A stretch of DNA of 64,000 nucleotides from an uncultured Candidatus Saccharibacteria bacterium (GTDB lineage: Bacteria; Patescibacteriota; Minisyncoccia; Minisyncoccales; Staskawiczbacteraceae): assembly GCA_964479955.1 (NCBI GenBank), contig CAYZNK010000002.1:7489-71488 (forward strand), in the 5' to 3' direction. The notes under the pieces are model-generated. The model was not told the origin of the DNA and made no database searches. It saw only the letters and a list, made by a program, of their open reading frames with translations. The position numbers and the translations under genes are program-made. Shown piece after piece: positions 6,008-29,257 of the stretch (the first letter of the stretch is position 1; every line of letters begins with the position of its first letter).

Positions 6008-6538
6008 ATGGAGGTTACAAAAGAAAAGATAGATGAGTTTATAAAAAAAGTAAATTCAAGCAAGGATAATCAGATGGATTTGTCTTCTGACGAAGATTTG
6101 TCTGTTGCAATAATGAATTTAATTTCTATTGAAGAACATTTCTTTTTTACGGGGGCAAAACTCCAAAAACCAGAATATTTTGATTTGCTTAATACTGCAA
6201 GGGAAATGAGAAAAGACCTTTTAAAAAGGATTATCAAAGACCCGGAAGGGGAAGTTTGGTGTATTTCAAAGCATTTGCTTGCAGCTTCAATGAGGCTTGT
6301 AGAAGTTGGCACTAAGGCCCAGGGTCAGCATAAAACGCAAGATGCAGCCGAAATGTTTAAAAAGGCATATGAACTTTACAGTTTATTTTGGGGGATTAAT
6401 CTGAATTTAGTTGGCATTGGGGAGGTAAAAAAAATTGACGAAAATCAGGTTAATAAAAAAGACGAAGACAAAAAAAACGGAATATTGGCAAAGCTTGGGC
6501 AAATGGTACAAAAAGTAATAGATTGCTGTAAAGAATAG
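6008..6538 (+). CDS. hypothetical protein
   Basis: 176-aa ORF with host-like composition. No family recognised. Confidence 0.6.
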   Translation: MEVTKEKIDEFIKKVNSSKDNQMDLSSDEDLSVAIMNLISIEEHFFFTGAKLQKPEYFDLLNTAREMRKDLLKRIIKDPEGEVWCISKHLLAASMRLVEVGTKAQGQHKTQDAAEMFKKAYELYSLFWGINLNLVGIGEVKKIDENQVNKKDEDKKNGILAKLGQMVQKVIDCCKE

Positions 6539-8067: not shown

Positions 8068-8967
8068 ATGAAAAGAAAATATATTTTTCTGTTTTTAGGA
8101 TTTTTATTTGTGATAAATATTTTTTGTTGGAAAGAAGTTTTTGTTTTAGCCCAAAGTAATAATTTGGAGATTTATTTTTTAAATGTGGGGCAAGGAGACT
8201 CTGCTTTTATTAAAACTCCGGAAAATCATCAAATCATAATTGACGGAGGTCCGACCTCCGTAGCCCTGGAGAAGATAGCAAAAATAATTCCATTTTGGGA
8301 TAAAACAATAGACTTGGTTATTTTAACCCACCCTGAAAAAGACCATATGCAGGGGCTGATGGATATTTTAAAAAGATACAAAGCAGACCATATTTTGGTT
8401 TCAGGGGTTTTAAAAGATTCGGAAGATTATAAAGAGTGGCAAAAAATTTTGCAAAACCAGAAAAACAGGGGAGCAGATGTTATATCAGTAAGGGCAGGAG
8501 ACAGAGCTGTTTTGGGAGACGCTTTAATAAAAATTTTGTATCCTTTGCAGGACTTTTCTGAAGTTAAAACAAATAAAAGCACCAATGAATCCTGTGTAGT
8601 TTCTGACCTGGTTTTTGGCACAAACTCATTTTTGTTTGCCGGAGACATCTCTGCAAAAAACGAAGCAGAAATTATTGCGGCCCCAAGAACCGCAATAACT
8701 GCTGATGTTTTAAAAATTGCGCACCACGGGTCAAAATATTCCACTTCCGAAGAATTTTTAAAGAACGTCGGGCCTGAATTTGCCATAATATCTGTTGGAA
8801 AAAATTCCTACGGCCATCCAACCCAGGAAACTTTGCAAAAATTGGAAAAATTTGGTATACAAGTATTAAGAACAGACACAGACGGCGATATAAAATTTGT
8901 GTCTGACGGTACAAATATTATTGTTAATCCCAAATCCCCAAACCCCAATGCCCAATCCGCTGACTGA
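8068..8967 (+). CDS. ComEC/Rec2-related metallo-beta-lactamase-fold protein (MBL domain only, N-terminal anchor)
   Basis: YFLNVGQGDSAFI, LTHPEKDHMQG and KIAHHGSKYS motifs, with an N-terminal hydrophobic helix. Confidence 0.8.
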   Translation: MKRKYIFLFLGFLFVINIFCWKEVFVLAQSNNLEIYFLNVGQGDSAFIKTPENHQIIIDGGPTSVALEKIAKIIPFWDKTIDLVILTHPEKDHMQGLMDILKRYKADHILVSGVLKDSEDYKEWQKILQNQKNRGADVISVRAGDRAVLGDALIKILYPLQDFSEVKTNKSTNESCVVSDLVFGTNSFLFAGDISAKNEAEIIAAPRTAITADVLKIAHHGSKYSTSEEFLKNVGPEFAIISVGKNSYGHPTQETLQKLEKFGIQVLRTDTDGDIKFVSDGTNIIVNPKSPNPNAQSAD

Positions 8968-10103: not shown

Positions 10104-10130
10104 TTTGTGGGGTGTCGGAGACCCCACAAA
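10104..10130. repeat. REP hairpin
   Basis: tttgtggggtgtcggagaccccacaaa. Confidence 0.8.
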
Positions 10131-10260
10131 ATCTTGACCTGGTTTTAAAAAGATATAAAATAAAGATAGCTCTGATATTTTAAATTAGATTCTATACGAA
10201 CTTTTTTTATGGGAGTTTGATATTTTTTAAGGCCGTGGCCTTAAAATGAGAACACCCACC

Positions 10261-10423
10261 AGACCTGCTGTTTAATAATTTTTCGTAACGAAAATTGAAA
10301 GATTTGAAGCGAAAATTATAAAAAATGAGGAGGTTTATATATAATATAAGCCGACGAATTTTTGATAATTTGTAGCCAAATATTTCAATTTGCAGTAGAA
10401 AGAAATTATTAAACAGCAGGTCT
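10261..10423. mobile_element. MITE-like long palindrome, same family as 7840-8004
   Basis: Perfect 21-nt terminal inverted repeat agacctgctgtttaataattt / aaattattaaacagcaggtct. The inner arms share aaattgaaaKatttg..aaattaTNaaaaat. Confidence 0.6.
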
Positions 10424-10569
10424 AATAATTTTGCTAGAAATCTAAAAAAATATTAGGGCAACAAAAAACAATTCGTTTAAGGCGAGTTGTTTTTTTGTTT
10501 TTAACTTTGCTTCCATGTTAAAATAAATAAAATAAGCGTGATTTTCATAATTAATACAACTAACCAGAG

Positions 10570-10595
10570 TTTGTGGGGTGTCCGGCACCCCACAA
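10570..10595. repeat. REP hairpin
   Basis: tttgtggggtgtccggcaccccacaa, immediately upstream of the RAYT gene. Confidence 0.8.
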
Positions 10596-10617
10596 CTAAA
10601 TAGTTTATTTTATAAAA

Positions 10618-11415
10618 ATGAAAATAAAACAGACACAATTAGTTAACAATGAAGTTTATCACATCATCTTAAGGGCAGTTGGCGATAGCTCTGTTTTTAA
10701 CGATCAGAATGACTATTATCGTGGTATTTTTTCCATCTACGAATTCAATAATTCGAAACCAACAGAAATATGGCTGAGGCGAATACAACGTAAAAAAGAG
10801 AAACTCCTTGAAAAACAGGAAGCATTGGGGTGTCCAGCATTGGGGTGTCCGACACCCCAACATTGTGCGACAAAAATAGTCATTGGGGTGTCGGACACCC
10901 CAATGACTAAAGAGGATGATAAGAGAGATAAATTTGTGGAGGTGTTGGCGTTTGCTTTTATGCCAAATCACATTCATTTGTTGCTTAAACAATTAAAAGA
11001 TTGTGGCATAAGTAAATTTATGCAAAAAGTTGGTGGAGGATATGCAAATTATTTTAATAAAAAATATAATCGCAAAGGGCATTTATTTAATAAGTTTAAA
11101 TCAGTTTATATCACTAATGATGACCAACTAAAAACAGTTTTTGCATATATTCACACAAATCCTTTATCTTTTGTGGAACCTAAATGGAAAGAAAATGGGA
11201 TTAAAGATGAAAATAAAGCAGTTAAATTTTTAGAAAAAGAATATAGGTGGTCAAGTCATTTTGATTATCTTGGCAAGAAAAATTTTCCGTCTGTGACCAA
11301 CAGAGATTTCCTTTCAGAAATAATGGGAGGAGAACAAGGATGCAGAGAAGCAATTAGGGATTGGATAAAATATAAAAAAGACATTAATAATTTTGGTGAT
11401 ATTATTTTAGAATAA
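10618..11415 (+). CDS. REP-associated tyrosine transposase (RAYT; IS200/IS605 TnpA-like Y1 HUH enzyme)
   Basis: YHIILRAV, HUH motif MPNHIHLLL and catalytic Tyr context AYIHTNP. REP hairpins flank it on both sides. Confidence 0.85.
   Translation: MKIKQTQLVNNEVYHIILRAVGDSSVFNDQNDYYRGIFSIYEFNNSKPTEIWLRRIQRKKEKLLEKQEALGCPALGCPTPQHCATKIVIGVSDTPMTKEDDKRDKFVEVLAFAFMPNHIHLLLKQLKDCGISKFMQKVGGGYANYFNKKYNRKGHLFNKFKSVYITNDDQLKTVFAYIHTNPLSFVEPKWKENGIKDENKAVKFLEKEYRWSSHFDYLGKKNFPSVTNRDFLSEIMGGEQGCREAIRDWIKYKKDINNFGDIILE
10823..10907. repeat. REPIN (inverted REP pair plus a partial third copy) embedded in-frame in the RAYT ORF
   Basis: cattggggtgtccag + cattggggtgtccgacaccccaa + cattgtgcgacaaaaatagt + cattggggtgtcggacaccccaatgac. 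It translates as ALGCPALGCPTPQHCATKIVIGVSDTPMT. Confidence 0.8.
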
Positions 11416-11422
11416 TTTAGCG

Positions 11423-11479
11423 GTCATTTTGCGGTCTCCGACACCGCAAGAATCTTGCGGTGTCGGAGACCGCAATGAC
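11423..11479. repeat. REPIN (inverted REP pair, GCGG class)
   Basis: ttgcggtctccgacaccgcaa-gaatc-ttgcggtgtcggagaccgcaa, flanked by gtcatt/aatgac. Confidence 0.8.
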
Positions 11480-11566
11480 TATTTGAAAGGGAAGTTATTC
11501 ACAGTGTTGACATCAAGAATTTATGATAAAATAAATAAAAATAGAAGTAGAAATTTAAAATTCTTA

Positions 11567-14500
11567 ATGCGATTAATGAGGGGAAATACCGCAAGAAAAA
11601 AAAGAGGAAAGAATTTTTCAAAACAAAAGTTCATTTTTTTGTTAAAATTTTTATTTCCTAAGAATATATTTTTATCACTGCTATCGGGGTTGGTCTGGGC
11701 CGGTTTGTTTTCTGTTGTTATCTATACTTTTGCAACTCCTCCCACAAGCCCCTATACATTGGGTGAAACTTTAAATCCATCTTGCGCTCCCGGATCAACA
11801 AATTGTACCGTCACCGAGCTTGCGGCTTATTCTTTTGGTTCTAATAATTTTTCAGGCACCGGAAATTTTGTAACAACAGGATCGGGATCATTTGGAAGTT
11901 TGGTTTTAACAACGTCAGCCTTGGAGGTTGGTTACGGAGGAACGGGCGTTGCGTCAATTGCGGCAGGTTCTGTTTTGGCGGCAAACACAGCCAATACGCT
12001 AACTGCAATAAATTCAACATCCGGAACCATGTATTTGAAGAATGTTGACGGAACAATCAGTTGGGGGGAAGTTTCATTAGGCTCTTATGTGCCGTACACT
12101 GGAGCAACATCAGATGTAAATTTGGGAGTAAATAATATTATTTCTTCAAAGTTAATTGGAGGTTCTGAAACTACTTCTGACCTTTCTCTTCAAACAACCT
12201 CAGGAATTGGAGCGACTGGAGCTGATATGCATTTTCTTGTTGGAAACAATGGTGGAACGGAAGCGATGACAATATTAAATTCTGGAGCAATAGGAATTGG
12301 AACAACCACACCACAAGTAAGCTTGCACAATAACGGTGACTTTATTACAAAGGGTCCATGGGCAGATGTCCGAGCTTATGGAGCAACCGGAGATGGAGTA
12401 ACCGATGATACTACGGCTGTTCAAGCTGCGTTGACCGCTTCACTAAATGTATATTTTCCCGCTGGAACATATTTGGTTTCAAATCTTACTGCCCAAACAG
12501 GTCAGCGTATTTTTGGAGATGGTACTCAGTCATCAATACGTTTTAAGGATGGGTCAACTGGATATCTGTTTGAATTATCTACTAAAGTGGTTCAATTTTC
12601 TAATCTTGACATAGACGGAGGAAGCAACACAGATAAATCTGCCACCGAATCAGCTGGAACACGCAGTGGTATTCACATGTCTTCAAACAATACTGGAAGC
12701 TCTATTCAAAACGTAGCCATTCACGGATTTGATAATATTGGTCTTGCATTTAATGGACTTGCTTCTCAGCCGGGATATGTAAACCCACCGGTAACAACAG
12801 GTGTAAGCGTTTATTATAATTACGTGGGTATAGATACTGGCGTAGGCGAAACTAATGGTGCTGAATATATGAGAATGTCTGATATTAATTCTTTTGGAAA
12901 TAGATATGGAATAATAATAAATTCTGGCAATATGACTTTTGCTGATTGTCATATCGATGGTAATGGTTATGGTGTTACCATTACAGACGCTTTTAACAAT
13001 GCTCATGGAACCATAGTTGGCAGTACTATAAACCACAATTTGTTATACGGTTTTTATATTGATGGAGCAAGTAATGGTTTTTCTATTACCGGTAACCAAA
13101 ATTATTACAGCAATGTTTATGTTAAAGATTCAACAGGAATTAATTTTAGAGGAAATACTTTTGGATCTTCAACTTTTACTTTTAGTGGAGGTGGTGTTAA
13201 TATGCTTGAAGGAAATTATTTTGTTTCTACACCATCTTTTTCAAGAACAAACGACAATTTTATAATTTCAGATAATTATACGGGCTCAAGTCCAACGTCT
13301 GTTAGCTCTGGTTTACAAATATATTCCGGACTTGGTTCAGTAAAAGCTTCGGCATTATCAACCTATGCTGCGCCAGTAAATATTGTTACGCCTAATCCAT
13401 TTAGTGGTACATCTACAGCTAATTCGGTTCCAAGTTTAGCAAGCAACGTTGCTATTACCACAAGTGATGCTTGGGGCAAAGATATTGGTGGTGTTTTAGG
13501 ATTGGGCGGGCAATATAATACAGCAGTAACATATCCACAGGTTATTTTTGGAGCATTAAGAGGAGGTAAAAGTACTGTTACAGATGGCGATATGGCCGGT
13601 TATTTAGGAATTTATACAAATAGCGGATCTGCTCTTTCTGAAGTAGCTAGATTTGATAACAATGGTTATCTTGGCATTGGCGTGGAAGCCCCATCGCAAG
13701 AGCTGGATGTTGTTGGCGATATTGAGCTTGAAGACACAACCTCAGATGACACCGGCGTTATCTACAAAGGAGCAAACAGGTTTTTACATAACTTCCATCA
13801 CCCGACTGGAAGCACTGCTGTGCCTACGGGTCAGAATACCTTTGTAGGCGAAGGAGCTGGAAATTTTACAATGGGAAGTACGGCAACAGAGACTTATCAC
13901 GGAAGTTATAATACTGGTGTAGGTTATCAAGCATTACAAGCCAATACCACAGGATTCTACAACACAGCGAATGGTGTGTCTGCCCTCTACTCCAATACCA
14001 CAGGAAGTTACAACGTTGCGAATGGCTCTAATGCCCTCCGCATGAACACCACAGGAAGTTACAACACAGCGAATGGTGTGTCTGCCCTCTCCTCCAATAC
14101 CACAGGAAGCTACAACACAGCGAATGGTGTGTCTGCCCTCTCCTCCAATACCACAGGAAGCTACAACACAGCGAATGGTGTGTCTGCCCTCCGCTTAAAC
14201 ACCACAGGAAACTCCAACACAGCGAATGGTATGAATGCCCTTTTTTCCAACAAAACAGGCTCTAATGGTGTGGCTATTGGGACTGAATCACAATACTATG
14301 CTAATGACACCTTAACCCCGTGGACAAACTACAACACCTCAGTTGGGTATCAGGCTTTAAGGGGTTCTACCACCGCCGCCGACAACACCGGCAACTACAA
14401 CACAGCGTTGGGATATCAGTCTCTGCTTAACATTACAACAGGAAGCCATAATACAGCAGTAGGGTATATGGCAGGATACTACATTGCAGGCGGAGCAGTA

Positions 14501-17131
14501 AATAACACAATATCTGACTACTCAGTGTACCTTGGAAACTCAACTAAAGCCTCTGCTGACAATGCCCAGAACGAGATTGTGATTGGATATGACGCAACAG
14601 GTCTTGGCAGTAACTCCGTTGTTTTGGGAAATTCAAGTATTACCACAACAGTCCTGCGTGGAGCTGTTGGTATTGGCGTGGAAGCCCCATCGCAAGAGCT
14701 GGATGTTGTTGGCGATATTGAGCTTGAAGACACAACCTCAGATGACACCGGCGTTATCTACAAAGGAGCAAACAGGTTTTTACATAACTTCCATCACCCG
14801 ACTGGAAGCACTGCTGTGCCTACGGGTCAGAATACCTTTGTAGGCGAAGGAGCTGGAAATTTTACAATGGGAAGTACGGCAACAGAGACTTATCACGGAA
14901 GTTATAATACTGGTGTAGGTTATCAAGCATTACAAGCCAATACCACAGGATTCTACAACACAGCGAATGGTGTGTCTGCCCTCTACTCCAATACCACAGG
15001 AAGTTACAACGTTGCGAATGGCTCTAATGCCCTCCGCATGAACACCACAGGAAGTTACAACACAGCGAATGGTGTGTCTGCCCTTTTTTCCAACAAAACA
15101 GGTTCTAATGGTGTAGCTATTGGTTATGATTCTCAGAGATATGCCAACGACACCGCAGTGGCTTGGGCAAACTACAACACCTCAGTTGGGTATCAGGCTT
15201 TAAGGGGTTCTACCACAGCGGCAAACAATACGGGGAATGAAAATAGTGTATTTGGATACCAAACACTTTACGCTAATACTTCGGGTCAAAAAAATTCTGC
15301 GATTGGAACTTGGTCTTTATATTCCAACACTACAGGAAGCTACAATACAGGAATTGGATGGGGAACTCTTTATAACAATACCACGGGTAATTCTAATATT
15401 GCACTTGGATATGAAGCGGGAAGATATATTGCTGATGGTTCAACATCTAATACTACATCTGATTACAGTATATATATTGGTAGAGGCGTAAAAGCCTCTG
15501 CTGACGATGCCCAGAACGAGATTGTGATTGGATATAATACGACAGGACAGGGAAATAATACAATCACATTCGGCAATACCTCAATGGTTGGGGCTTACTT
15601 CTTGGCAGACGATTATAAAACCTACTGGGGAGCAGGAAAAAATGCTTCAATCAACTATGATGGAGATAATATGTATTTTAATAGTCAGGAAGTTGGAGTT
15701 GGCAGTTTTATTTTTTCAGGAGGCAATGTTGGCATTGGAACAGTAACCACTCCAACTAACGCAAAATTAGTTGTAAACGGAGGCATAGCTGTTGGTGCTG
15801 ATGCATTAAATAATACAATCAGCACAGGTTCTTTGGGAGACGGAACTACCACTTTATATGTAGGCACATATACGGTAGATACCACGGCTCCTTCAGATAT
15901 AATTACAAAAGAAGAAATAGTTTCAACAAGTTATGGATTGGAAGATTTATTAAAACTGTCTGTTAAAAATTACAAATATAAAAGACAATATGTTAATGAA
16001 GGCGCGGTTCAAGAGGAACACACAGGTTTGATTGCCCAGGATGTTGAACAGATTTATCCTGAGGCTGTTATATACAGGTCGGATGGGCTTAAGGCTATTA
16101 ACTATACAAAAATGATTCCGCTGATTATCAGTTCTATACAGGAACTTTCTGCGGGAAAAACTTTGTCAGATAATGGAACTTGGGGTGAAGGCACAGTTTT
16201 TGGTTTGGAAGATTCTTCTTTTACGGCTCAGCTAAAGCTGGCTTTTACCAGCCTTGGAATCTATATTGAAAAAGGAGTGGCTACTTTTGAGGAAGTCATT
16301 GCGCAAAAAGCAACCATAAAAACAGCAAAGGTTGAAGGTCTTGAAATGGTTGATAAGACAACCGGCGAAATTTGGTGCACGCAGATTAGCAACGGCGAAT
16401 GGACAAAAACAAAAGGAGAATGTAATCCTTCCGTTGTGACTCAGGAAACTTCAACAGAAAGTTCTACACAAATAGAGACTGCGCTTGAAATTCAAACAAC
16501 AACGCAAAATGAAGTATCTTCAGAAGAAATCGTAGAAGAAGTCAAAGAAAAAGTTAAAGAAGAGGTTAAAGAAGAAGTGAGTCAGCAGGTTGCAGAAAAA
16601 ATTAAAGACCAAGTGGTCCAGGAGGTTACAGAACAAGTGACAGAACAGATAACAGAGGCAGTTCAACAGGTTACAGAACAAAGCAACGAAGCAAAACATT
16701 CGGCTAACGAAGCGCAACAGTCTGCAAAAGAGTCTCAAAAACATGCCGAACAAGCCCAGCAGGCTGTAGAAAAATCAACAAAACAGCAGGTAGAGGAAAT
16801 AGAACAAGAAGAAGCAGTAGAACCTGTTGAGGCTGTTGAAACCGTTGAAACCCTTGAAGTTGAATCAGCTGAGGAACCAACTGTTGAACAGCCCCAAGAA
16901 GAACAGCAGTCATCAGTTGGAGATTTAATACAAGAAACAACAGCGGGGTTGTTTAGCGGAGTTATGAATTTCATAAAATGGCTGTTTGGTTCTGCGGCCC
17001 AGACGGTTTCAAAGGCCGTCCCCGCGGATGTTATGCAGTCAACAGCCAGTTTATCATCAAGCGTTTCAGATAATTTTATACAGGGGATTAAACAGATAAT
17101 AAATGATGTTAAGAATATTTTGAAATTCTAA
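11567..17131 (+). CDS. giant membrane-anchored surface fibre protein: beta-helix (pectate-lyase-like), repeated fibre modules, peptidase-S74 intramolecular-chaperone domain and a Glu/Gln-rich tail
   Basis: ATG 11567 is chosen because upstream codons read through the REPIN. TM helix LSLLSGLVWAGLFSVVIY. DVRAYGATGDGVTDDTTAVQAAL..YFPAGTYLV. Recurrent G.GIG...P...L.V.G motifs. SDIITKEEI...GLIAQDVEQIYPEAV...INYTKMIPLIISSIQEL. Confidence 0.8.
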   Translation: MRLMRGNTARKKRGKNFSKQKFIFLLKFLFPKNIFLSLLSGLVWAGLFSVVIYTFATPPTSPYTLGETLNPSCAPGSTNCTVTELAAYSFGSNNFSGTGNFVTTGSGSFGSLVLTTSALEVGYGGTGVASIAAGSVLAANTANTLTAINSTSGTMYLKNVDGTISWGEVSLGSYVPYTGATSDVNLGVNNIISSKLIGGSETTSDLSLQTTSGIGATGADMHFLVGNNGGTEAMTILNSGAIGIGTTTPQVSLHNNGDFITKGPWADVRAYGATGDGVTDDTTAVQAALTASLNVYFPAGTYLVSNLTAQTGQRIFGDGTQSSIRFKDGSTGYLFELSTKVVQFSNLDIDGGSNTDKSATESAGTRSGIHMSSNNTGSSIQNVAIHGFDNIGLAFNGLASQPGYVNPPVTTGVSVYYNYVGIDTGVGETNGAEYMRMSDINSFGNRYGIIINSGNMTFADCHIDGNGYGVTITDAFNNAHGTIVGSTINHNLLYGFYIDGASNGFSITGNQNYYSNVYVKDSTGINFRGNTFGSSTFTFSGGGVNMLEGNYFVSTPSFSRTNDNFIISDNYTGSSPTSVSSGLQIYSGLGSVKASALSTYAAPVNIVTPNPFSGTSTANSVPSLASNVAITTSDAWGKDIGGVLGLGGQYNTAVTYPQVIFGALRGGKSTVTDGDMAGYLGIYTNSGSALSEVARFDNNGYLGIGVEAPSQELDVVGDIELEDTTSDDTGVIYKGANRFLHNFHHPTGSTAVPTGQNTFVGEGAGNFTMGSTATETYHGSYNTGVGYQALQANTTGFYNTANGVSALYSNTTGSYNVANGSNALRMNTTGSYNTANGVSALSSNTTGSYNTANGVSALSSNTTGSYNTANGVSALRLNTTGNSNTANGMNALFSNKTGSNGVAIGTESQYYANDTLTPWTNYNTSVGYQALRGSTTAADNTGNYNTALGYQSLLNITTGSHNTAVGYMAGYYIAGGAVNNTISDYSVYLGNSTKASADNAQNEIVIGYDATGLGSNSVVLGNSSITTTVLRGAVGIGVEAPSQELDVVGDIELEDTTSDDTGVIYKGANRFLHNFHHPTGSTAVPTGQNTFVGEGAGNFTMGSTATETYHGSYNTGVGYQALQANTTGFYNTANGVSALYSNTTGSYNVANGSNALRMNTTGSYNTANGVSALFSNKTGSNGVAIGYDSQRYANDTAVAWANYNTSVGYQALRGSTTAANNTGNENSVFGYQTLYANTSGQKNSAIGTWSLYSNTTGSYNTGIGWGTLYNNTTGNSNIALGYEAGRYIADGSTSNTTSDYSIYIGRGVKASADDAQNEIVIGYNTTGQGNNTITFGNTSMVGAYFLADDYKTYWGAGKNASINYDGDNMYFNSQEVGVGSFIFSGGNVGIGTVTTPTNAKLVVNGGIAVGADALNNTISTGSLGDGTTTLYVGTYTVDTTAPSDIITKEEIVSTSYGLEDLLKLSVKNYKYKRQYVNEGAVQEEHTGLIAQDVEQIYPEAVIYRSDGLKAINYTKMIPLIISSIQELSAGKTLSDNGTWGEGTVFGLEDSSFTAQLKLAFTSLGIYIEKGVATFEEVIAQKATIKTAKVEGLEMVDKTTGEIWCTQISNGEWTKTKGECNPSVVTQETSTESSTQIETALEIQTTTQNEVSSEEIVEEVKEKVKEEVKEEVSQQVAEKIKDQVVQEVTEQVTEQITEAVQQVTEQSNEAKHSANEAQQSAKESQKHAEQAQQAVEKSTKQQVEEIEQEEAVEPVEAVETVETLEVESAEEPTVEQPQEEQQSSVGDLIQETTAGLFSGVMNFIKWLFGSAAQTVSKAVPADVMQSTASLSSSVSDNFIQGIKQIINDVKNILKF
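13676..14088 (+). repeat. 413-bp segment, copy 1 of a perfect in-frame duplication
   Basis: By eye it is identical base for base to 14672-15084 (offset 996 bp = 332 codons). Confidence 0.85.
13955..14260 (+). repeat. six tandem 51-bp (17-aa) repeats, (S/F)YNTANGVSALxSNTTG
   Basis: Units read off the sequence; the central units are near-identical at nucleotide level. The second module (14951-15103) has only three units. Confidence 0.8.
14672..15084 (+). repeat. 413-bp segment, copy 2 of the perfect in-frame duplication
   Basis: Identical to 13676-14088. Confidence 0.85.
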
Positions 17132-23638: not shown

Positions 23639-23664
23639 CTTGTGGGGTGTCCGACACCCCAATA
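23639..23664. repeat. REP hairpin
   Basis: cttgtggggtgtccgacaccccaata. Confidence 0.8.
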
Positions 23665-28456: not shown

Positions 28457-28505
28457 ATTGGGGTGTCGGACACCCCAATATTGTGCGACAAAAATAGCCA
28501 TTGTA
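28457..28505. repeat. REP hairpin plus the REPIN linker sequence (half REPIN)
   Basis: aattggggtgtcggacaccccaatattgtgcgacaaaaatagccattg. The linker is the same as in 10861-10885. Confidence 0.8.
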
Positions 28506-28557: not shown

Positions 28558-28607
28558 TTTGCGAGGTCGGACCTCGCAAGGTTTTTGCGAGGTCGGACCT
28601 CGCAAAA
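28558..28607. repeat. two direct REP hairpins (GCGAG class)
   Basis: ttgcgaggtcggacctcgcaa occurs twice, separated by ggttt. Confidence 0.8.
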
Positions 28608-28611
28608 CTTT

Positions 28612-29010
28612 TTAGTATTCTGCACAGCTGCCGGAAGATTCTTCAGTGGAAGGATTTTTGACTGCGGGAAATTCGCAGGTATCCTCAATATTGTCTTGTT
28701 TAGGTTCTTTTTCTTGAGGGTCTCCGATACCCGCAAGTTCAAGCCCAAATCTTTTTAAGAATTTCTTGGCTCGTTCCACCGCTGGATCCCAATGGATACG
28801 ATTTGAATGTCCCTTGATTAATCCACGAATAATTCCTGCGAATTCTTCGTGTTTTTCGTTAGCGCGGCGTTTAAAATACGCCCGCCGGGACAAAGGAAGC
28901 GCTACAACACTTGTAAGTTCCCAGCCTTGTTCGGCGAGTTGGCCAATAATGATTTGTTCATCGGATGCGTCTCCGCATAGGTCGTAGACACAAAATTTCC
29001 ACTTTTTCAT
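28612..29010 (-). CDS. hypothetical protein with N-terminal DUF4177-like domain, antisense between fusA and tuf (cassette E)
   Basis: AGGAG at 29021-29017 lies 6 nt before ATG 29010. MKKWKFCVYDL...QLAEQGWELTSVVAL...AYFKR resembles DUF4177. The track start 29196 is rejected. Confidence 0.65.
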   Translation of the reverse strand: MKKWKFCVYDLCGDASDEQIIIGQLAEQGWELTSVVALPLSRRAYFKRRANEKHEEFAGIIRGLIKGHSNRIHWDPAVERAKKFLKRFGLELAGIGDPQEKEPKQDNIEDTCEFPAVKNPSTEESSGSCAEY

Positions 29011-29119
29011 CACATTCTCCTTTGCGTAAGCGAATATGGAAAGAACTAATAAAATAATATCAAAAATAAGAAATTTGTCAAAGATTTTGGATTGTTTTTT
29101 GAAAATATAAAACACCCTC

Positions 29120-29148
29120 TTGACTATTAAAAAAAAATAGAATAATAT
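29120..29148 (+). promoter_or_regulatory. candidate dedicated tuf promoter
   Basis: TTGACT, 17-nt spacer, TAATAT. The leader contains gtacaaat...atttgtac and gcgcc...ggcgc hairpins. Confidence 0.5.
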
Positions 29149-29257
29149 AAAATTATTAAAAGGCAGTACAAATGCCAAGAGGTTATTTGTACACAAATAA
29201 AATAAAAAAGTAATTAAATTTTTGCGCCTGGCAAATGGCGCGAGAAAAAAATAATCA

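Follow-up and report, generated by a model that had tools for sequence, protein, structure and literature searches.

How does a gene for a transposase-like enzyme come to carry, within its own reading frame, a repeat of the kind that brackets it? The question is raised by a locus in an uncultured Candidatus Saccharibacteria bacterium, in a stretch of 64,000 nt (contig CAYZNK010000002.1, positions 7,489 to 71,488 of the forward strand, assembly GCA_964479955.1) that is called the window here. The gene, at 10618-11415, encodes a Y1 HUH enzyme resembling the REP-associated tyrosine transposases (RAYTs), and REPs (repetitive extragenic palindromes) lie upstream of it, downstream of it and inside it. 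A sequence-only reading of the locus had suggested that the enzyme was hit by its own substrate and might be recently inactivated. Comparison with related sequences indicates that the finding is larger than the window: there is a conserved intragenic REP in a clade of RAYT-like genes of the Patescibacteria.

The repeats of the locus

The gene, the REPs around and within it and the dispersed cognate REPs are listed below; L followed by a number denotes a locus of a relative.

10104-10130, no strand: solo REP palindrome of the GGGGTGTC type with a G.G mismatch, 5 nt past the stop of an ADK-like gene
10571-10595, no strand: cognate REP hairpin on the upstream side (UP), its end 22 nt ahead of the ATG; shares its 8-nt arm core with the internal REP arm
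10618-11415, + strand: intact gene for the RAYT-like Y1 HUH enzyme (265 aa), with H118/H120 encoded at nt 10969-10977 and Y177 at nt 11146-11148
10821-10835, + strand: AGCATTGGGGTGTCC, the left half of IN1 duplicated in tandem over 15 nt and equal to 10836-10850; in the window only
10840-10860, + strand: IN1, internal REP at the canonical family position and phase; its centre, 10850, is a codon position 2; encodes LGCPTPQ
10861-10882, + strand: REPIN linker; 18 nt of it (10862-10879) are identical to 28480-28497
10883-10905, + strand: IN2, second, inverted internal REP within an extended palindrome, 10877-10909; in a different phase, read as GVSDTP; common to L080, probably lost from L082 and L083
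11429-11475, no strand: REP doublet on the downstream side (DN), forming a perfect palindrome of 47 nt in the sister variant GCGGTCTC and starting 13 nt past the stop
23643-23661, no strand: dispersed extragenic cognate REP, from a scan of the window for the core motif
28457-28497, no strand: truncated REPIN, made up of a dispersed cognate REP and, after it, the same 18-nt linker; from the exact linker match

Several elements of the earlier reading stand. The palindromes it had seen upstream are both present, and the internal element is of the gene's own REP type and is translated in frame without a stop. IN1 and IN2 (23/23 positions complementary) make up the doublet that it had described inside the gene; what it took for a partial third copy is a local tandem duplication of 15 nt, absent from L080, L082 and L083. 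The inverted pair downstream is also there, but as two inverted copies of the GCGGTCTC stem with a C.C mismatch, a sister variant, and not as the GGGGTGTC type of the upstream and internal copies. A doublet of the DN type is the internal element in L001, L084 and L085.

Cognate sequences are far more frequent in the window than expected. The core GGTGTCSGRSACC is found at nine positions (17 strand-specific matches; 0.09 expected), and the linker ATTGTGCGACAAAAATAG, whose sharing with a second site had been pointed out, occurs exactly twice, at 10862-10879 and 28480-28497 (0.01 expected). Three further cognate copies (10104, 23643 and 28457) and related variants (8243, 28559/28583 and 28719) are spread over the 64 kb. 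The REP feet, read directly from the sequences, are (A/T)TTG...CAA(T/A), with no 5' GTAG, and this REP type is stop-free in all three frames. There is also an inverse match between flanks: in the 30-nt arms 10874-10903 and 11455-11484, which are 87% complementary, the left flank of IN2 (AAATAGTCATT) inverts the right flank of DN (AATGACTATTT), so that the repeat extends beyond the GC-rich stem.

An internal hairpin as a family trait

Is the internal REP peculiar to this one gene? The window protein has 2437 database relatives at E <=0.001, and every source name that bears a taxon is Patescibacteria or Parcubacteria. Loci from genome assemblies (79) and from metagenomes (80) were compared, with 128 distinct relatives among the sequences; counts of structure and phase refer to 69 genome loci. 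The homologues are 221-301 aa long, mostly about 231-265, and their alignment places the length variation mainly in N-terminal extensions and in a hypervariable stretch between RRxQRKKEK and RDKxVE, which is the site of the window insert. When an internal palindrome is counted at 8 pairs or more, 65 of the 94 relatives that are at least 45% identical to the window protein carry one in this same loop-coding segment, as do 12 of the 34 more distant ones. Even among relatives scored as having none, short exact copies of the flanking REP are seen in L047, L067 and L037, and decayed relics in L039 and L023.

The flanking copies keep their places as well: the upstream one ends about 3-70 nt before the start codon and the downstream one starts about 0-60 nt after the stop. 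An internal hairpin is present at 51 of the 69 genome loci, and its arm core matches the upstream hairpin in 37 and the downstream one in 38. The most stable 40-nt structure of the gene falls in the loop segment at 51/69 loci. The loop segment reaches -15 kcal/mol or lower in 34/69, against 0/69 and 3/69 for other coding parts; the median of its best 40-nt structure over the loci is -14.6 kcal/mol, and the window value is -25. A layout of REP, N-terminal part, REP, C-terminal part, REP is, as these alignments indicate, a family trait of a RAYT-like clade in the Patescibacteria.

Several genomes hold two or three divergent paralogues, some with distinct hairpins. The members of two such sets, L004/L005 of JBBTQJ and L022/L055/L061 of CAYIJU, are each about 49-58% identical to the window protein, a figure that does not refer to their identity with one another. 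No near-identical second gene copy was seen in the loci compared. Alleles that are uninterrupted or nearly identical to the window gene were also sought and none was found, the best metagenome relative being 75% identical and the best genome relative 63%. One contig, CAYNAT010000009.1 (L015), carries two RAYT-like paralogues about 5.5 kb apart, with loop segments at about 611-745 and 6133-6249; they differ in internal hairpin type (CCCGAGGACGGGCCTCGGG versus TGGGAGGCCCGGCTTCCCA), and this is a possible test locus for paralogue-specific hairpin recognition. In the window itself a third REP variant, TTGCGAGGTCGGACCTCGCAA, forms an inverted doublet at 28559-28607. Together with GCGGTCTC, this variant suggests that further RAYT paralogues with REP types of their own are present elsewhere in the genome.

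The hairpin and the REPs of its own locus

The internal hairpins are diverse, with 57 distinct arm types, and each tends to resemble its neighbours. At 67 of 77 loci (87%) the 7 nt of internal arm next to the hairpin loop differ by no more than one mismatch from a flanking hairpin of the same locus; with the flanks of other loci the figure is 5.5%, and the chance expectation of internal-flank matches is 0.0 per locus. A peptide common to homologues was what the sequence-only reading had named as the mark of ancestral sequence. No such peptide is shared; instead, each homologue carries the REP of its own genome at the site. The element is therefore an old, maintained nucleic-acid element, neither an ancestral peptide nor a fresh insertion.

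The age of the hairpin can be judged from pairs of loci whose identity at 4-fold sites is 0.29-0.41, i.e. roughly saturated, and which retain it. The hairpins of L030 and L058 are identical at 23/23 positions, a shared A.C mismatch included, those of L046 and L059 at 32/33, and L001 and L084 have identical arms. Compensatory changes in the stem separate L088 from L089, L020 from L056 and L015 from L016. The encoded loop peptide, by contrast, is variable and is read in different frames (GCPTP vs GVSDTP; AGSDP vs GLTP). These comparisons indicate that the internal hairpin is kept as nucleic acid and not as peptide, as a member of the REP family of its locus that is constrained at the level of nucleotides and lies in a loop with which the protein can dispense.

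The centre of the hairpin lies at codon position 2 in 41 of 51 loci. Could avoidance of stop codons impose such a phase? For the REP type of the window it is no obvious cause, as this type is stop-free in all frames and IN2 stands in a different phase. Common descent with change in place is the simpler reading of the bias. On a neighbour-joining tree, tips of the main group that lack a hairpin are scattered within clades that bear one, a pattern suggestive of loss.

Orthologues and recent history

The gene order of the window, with MBL gene, ADK-like gene and RAYT-like gene in succession, recurs at L080/L081 and L082. The orthologues at this syntenic position carry a REP at the same site; their frames are open and their proteins are 71-80% identical over the aligned residues. 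IN1 aligns across all four orthologues, at one and the same site in L080, L082 and L083. L082 seems to have kept a piece of the linker and the 3' end of IN2 as a remnant, the linker similarity being weak. The IN2 doublet probably predates the splits between the window, L080, L082 and L083, to judge from these sequences, and was lost in the last two. The internal stem of L082 is a different one, 2 nt longer, and matches the DN copy of that locus, the UP copy of which has decayed. In the sub-lineage of the window the internal REP is extended to a REPIN-like inverted doublet, to which the window alone adds the 15-nt duplication.

The enzyme

The proposal that 10618-11415 encodes a Y1 HUH enzyme is borne out. 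The frame is uninterrupted and stop-free over 265 aa, and the protein scores above the cut-off of the Pfam Y1_Tnp family, PF01797 (E 2.7e-11; 44.1 bits, cut-off 23), over residues 104-180 only. The HUH motif PNHIHLLL covers aa 116-123 (nt 10963-10986) and Y177 lies within AYIHTNP (nt 11146-11148). H118, H120 and Y177 are invariant in 118 family sequences.

The enzyme had also been called RAYT-like, and its structure agrees. An AlphaFold2 model was built from 118 homologues; its mean pLDDT (predicted local distance difference test) is 86 and its pTM (predicted template modelling score) 0.80. The top match among solved structures is 4ER8, the RAYT-REP complex of Escherichia coli (probability 1.0, target-normalised TM-score 0.62), with the ISDra2 and IS608 transposases behind it (the IS200/IS605 type takes ranks 3-30). 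Among NCBIfam models the nearest is RAYT, NF047646, at 37.9 bits, below its cut-off of 80; the IS200 model NF033573 is weaker, at 18.7 bits with a cut-off of 55. Since the protein has the fold and the gene its flanking REPs, but the curated RAYT model fails and the GTAG tag is absent, the gene is a divergent RAYT-like lineage and no equivalog of the curated RAYT family.

Where in the protein does the REP fall? A surface loop had been suggested, and the model is in accord: the REP-encoded residues 75-97 have a pLDDT <50, between a helix (51-69) and a strand (107-114) and just N-terminal of the HUH strand (118-125), and most of the rest of the core is above 90. The segment is predicted to be a disordered surface loop.

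How might an intragenic REP be maintained?

RAYTs recognise REP hairpins in single-stranded DNA, which they bind and cleave, and are capable of strand transfer. While replication or transcription leaves the locus single-stranded, the enzyme could bind the hairpin in its own gene as it would any cognate REP. Such binding might exert negative feedback on the expression of the enzyme, and/or might lead to strand exchange or gene conversion in place at the internal hairpin. Through such an exchange the internal copy would stay identical to the REP population as it currently is, and would become a protected source copy; position and phase would be retained while the sequence is updated, and L082 fits such a course. 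At 28480-28497 the linker recurs exactly, which would agree with a role of the internal REPIN as source copy, although copying may have run in either direction. Most plausibly, the enzyme itself is the reader of the hairpin sequence. We are inclined, with slightly more confidence than doubt, to view the internal hairpin as an old part of a three-hairpin unit that is maintained as nucleic acid and is bound by the enzyme its gene encodes, with feedback, copy correction in place or both as the outcome. The E. coli RAYT is auto-inhibited and, in the words of its authors, "severely down-regulated" (PMC3479197).

A stronger proposal is more tentative, and we lean somewhat against it: that the internal REP is a selected self-recognition site, by which a domesticated HUH transposase restrains its expression, preserves a master copy of its REP that is proof against deletion, or does both. 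If true, the master copy would seed and homogenise the REPIN population in the small, streamlined genomes of Patescibacteria, and the specificity of the enzyme would be physically tied to its substrate, which would explain the coevolution of RAYTs and REPs.

A number of observations weigh against maintenance through the enzyme. The internal hairpin is missing or decayed in about 20-30% of close relatives and in most distant ones, and therefore is not essential; many members of a distant group (30-40% identity) have the two flanking hairpins only. The clade L109-L119 has its internal hairpin in another codon phase, and a cognate hairpin lies elsewhere in the gene in L150 (at +324 nt) and in the sister loci L147 and L156 (about 45 nt past the HUH anchor). 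From these other positions and the other phase it follows that REP copies entered the genes more than once. The orientation of the internal copy relative to the flanking ones, judged by the loop bases, is not constant across loci; an asymmetric TCTCCGACA subclass has UP in the plus, IN in the plus and DN mostly in the minus orientation, but the subclass is small and closely related and allows no generalisation. A strand bias in stem mismatches was looked for and not found, G.T and A.C classes being about equal in UP, IN and DN. Binding or cutting of the internal copy by the enzyme is putative, as is an effect on expression. A stem mismatch is required for binding by the E. coli enzyme, and the internal copies of the window are perfect palindromes, although that rule (PMC3479197) may not apply here.

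Could the hairpin be a passive passenger, renewed again and again? This is the main alternative and a serious rival. The enzyme would act preferentially near its own gene, REPs would be inserted there repeatedly, and none but in-frame, stop-free copies would survive in a permissive, disordered loop; what appears as maintenance would be frequent replacement, and the hairpin would have no function for the gene. The "tolerated loop insertion" of the earlier reading is thereby generalised. The copies in other loops of L147, L156 and L150 and the clade with a different codon phase are in keeping with it, as are the coexistence of singlets, doublets and partial copies, the relics and losses scattered through the tree, the variable spacing to both protein anchors and the presence of another REP-like palindrome in frame in the open reading frame (ORF) 28612-29196(-). 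Intragenic REPs and Rickettsia palindromic elements (RPEs) are moreover known elsewhere (PMC3733652). Independent insertions, however, should not favour one codon phase, yet 41 of 51 loci share it; the window REP is stop-free in every frame and its IN2 copy stands in a different phase. Such insertions also leave unexplained the identical hairpins, with one shared mismatch, in pairs whose synonymous sites are saturated. A loop that tolerates changes of length should also lose palindromes fast by in-frame deletion, but about 70-80% of close relatives keep one. On this evidence a mere passenger seems unlikely, though it deserves to be taken seriously. An mRNA element that acts independently of the enzyme is less probable still. 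The stem-loop would slow ribosomes, block exonucleases or be cut by a double-strand RNase, so that enzyme levels stay low, and the match to the flanking REPs would merely reflect one shared repeat family. The structures are very stable, TCCGA exceeds TCGGA on the coding strand by 25 to 9, and REPs affect mRNA stability and translation in other bacteria (background in PMC3733652). But mismatches that would be G.U-compatible on the sense strand are not enriched (A.C/C.A 19 vs G.T/T.G 13), and it is left unexplained why the sequence, beyond its pairing, tracks the REPs of its own locus. A terminator scan found no T-run 3' of the hairpins on the sense strand, IN2 with the linker being terminator-like on the antisense strand only. 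No Rfam family matched at its gathering score, and the sub-threshold matches were to generic, miRNA-like hairpins only.

Two other explanations are contradicted by the data, and we consider each of them very improbable. According to one, the enzyme was recently destroyed by a REPIN insertion and its frame is open by coincidence. With 67 aa between anchors the window loop is indeed longer than any other in the set (35-60 aa), and it has its private duplication; yet the 265-aa frame is open, the catalytic residues are intact, all 24 invariant and 58 near-invariant positions of the family are kept and the core is modelled with pLDDT >90. REPs at the same site are found in the syntenic orthologues, themselves open, and in most of the family, and the notion of a gene recently hit or inactivated has to be given up. 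According to the other, the segment is ancestral protein sequence, a conserved peptide whose DNA is palindromic by coincidence. A G-x-P-T-S/P-like string does recur in the alignment, and the native DGGPTS motif of the neighbouring MBL gene is a perfect 19-nt palindrome. Against this, the peptide varies freely and in different frames, the arm types each match extragenic hairpins of their own locus, and the loop is predicted to be disordered.

Relation to known systems

RAYT-REP(IN) systems were reportedly described by Nunvar in 2010, by Bertels and Rainey in 2011 and 2017 and by Ton-Hoang in 2012, and are also treated in Messing 2012 (PMC3479197). Like these REPtrons (E. coli TnpA-REP/YafM, Pseudomonas RAYTs), the present locus has a Y1 HUH fold with one catalytic tyrosine and 4ER8 as best match; the gene is bracketed by cognate GC-rich palindromes with dispersed copies in the window, the REP type is specific to genome and paralogue, and the locus is syntenic with L080-L082 and may be vertically inherited. 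Unlike the systems described in the literature searched, the Patescibacteria clade has a third cognate REP within the reading frame, conserved across the clade. The 5' GTAG tag is lacking; many hairpin feet of the clade are TTG...CAA and many centres TCCGA or TCGGA. The window protein is also about 100 aa longer, with a C-terminal helical extension, and stays below the cut-off of the curated RAYT model.

The TnpA enzymes of IS200/IS605 elements (IS608, ISDra2, IS200) share the fold, and their genes are likewise bracketed by subterminal hairpins. Expression of IS200 is, in addition, controlled by hairpins close to its 5' end. We know of no description of an internal hairpin in IS200/IS605 elements. 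The present family differs in that there is no sign of recent multi-copy transposition, the paralogues being divergent, and in that the hairpins of the window family are near-identical palindromes without distinct left and right ends; the IS200 model, too, scores below its cut-off.

The closest parallels to a palindrome within a coding sequence are the RPEs (Ogata, 2000) and the intragenic GTAG/CGTC REPs (Di Nocera, 2013), which share with the window an in-frame palindrome whose short extra peptide falls in a loop or linker. Such insertions are regarded as neutral; they are lineage-specific and scattered over unrelated genes (PMC3733652). Here the host gene encodes the putative mobilising enzyme of the repeat itself and the copy covaries with the flanking REPs; the same site is occupied in most relatives across >100 Patescibacteria genomes, the 15-nt duplicate being the only part private to the window.

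REPs are extragenic by name, and in this clade the intragenic copy is the best conserved one. The arrangement bears on the role of RAYTs in vivo and on the long-term matching of a RAYT with its REPs; with more than 50 independent sequence variants it amounts to a natural experiment. It also extends REP/RAYT biology to the Patescibacteria. Neither a REP inside a RAYT gene nor a study of REPs and RAYTs in the candidate phyla radiation was found in the literature searched, which included the texts of PMC6006769 and PMC5581495 and passages of PMC3733652 and PMC3479197; that the arrangement is unpublished is thus unproven.

Other repeats in the window

Two other reading frames contain REP-like palindromes. 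The MBL-fold ORF 8068-8967 has a perfect 19-nt palindrome at 8243-8261, ACGGAGGTCCGACCTCCGT, with the GTCCGAC centre of the family and in the codon phase of the RAYT hairpin. An in-frame REP insertion was considered here and rejected: the palindrome codes for a native motif, DGGPTS, whose counterpart in orthologues reads DGGPDS or DGGPNS. It may be there by chance, may have been converted by a REP, or may be a birthplace of REP-like sequences. The second in-frame REP-like sequence of the window is a degenerate palindrome at 28709-28740, CTTGAGGGTCTCCGATACCCGCAAG, read as LAGIGDPQ near the C-terminus of the 194-aa ORF 28612-29196 (-).

The 490-nt spacer upstream of the RAYT-like gene holds a perfect 21-nt inverted repeat, AGACCTGCTGTTTAATAATTT (10261-10281/10403-10423, arms 121 nt apart), with a weaker inverted repeat, 10279-10306/10377-10404, nested within it. 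With no relation to the REPs, this repeat might represent a small element like a miniature inverted repeat transposable element, or a structured RNA; weak, sub-threshold Rfam MCS4 matches lie nearby. Downstream, a mechanically called ORF of 1900 aa, 11429-17131, begins within the DN doublet, its true start being probably further downstream. The predicted product is very large and has long internal duplications, with a segment of about 150 aa repeated about 400 residues on.

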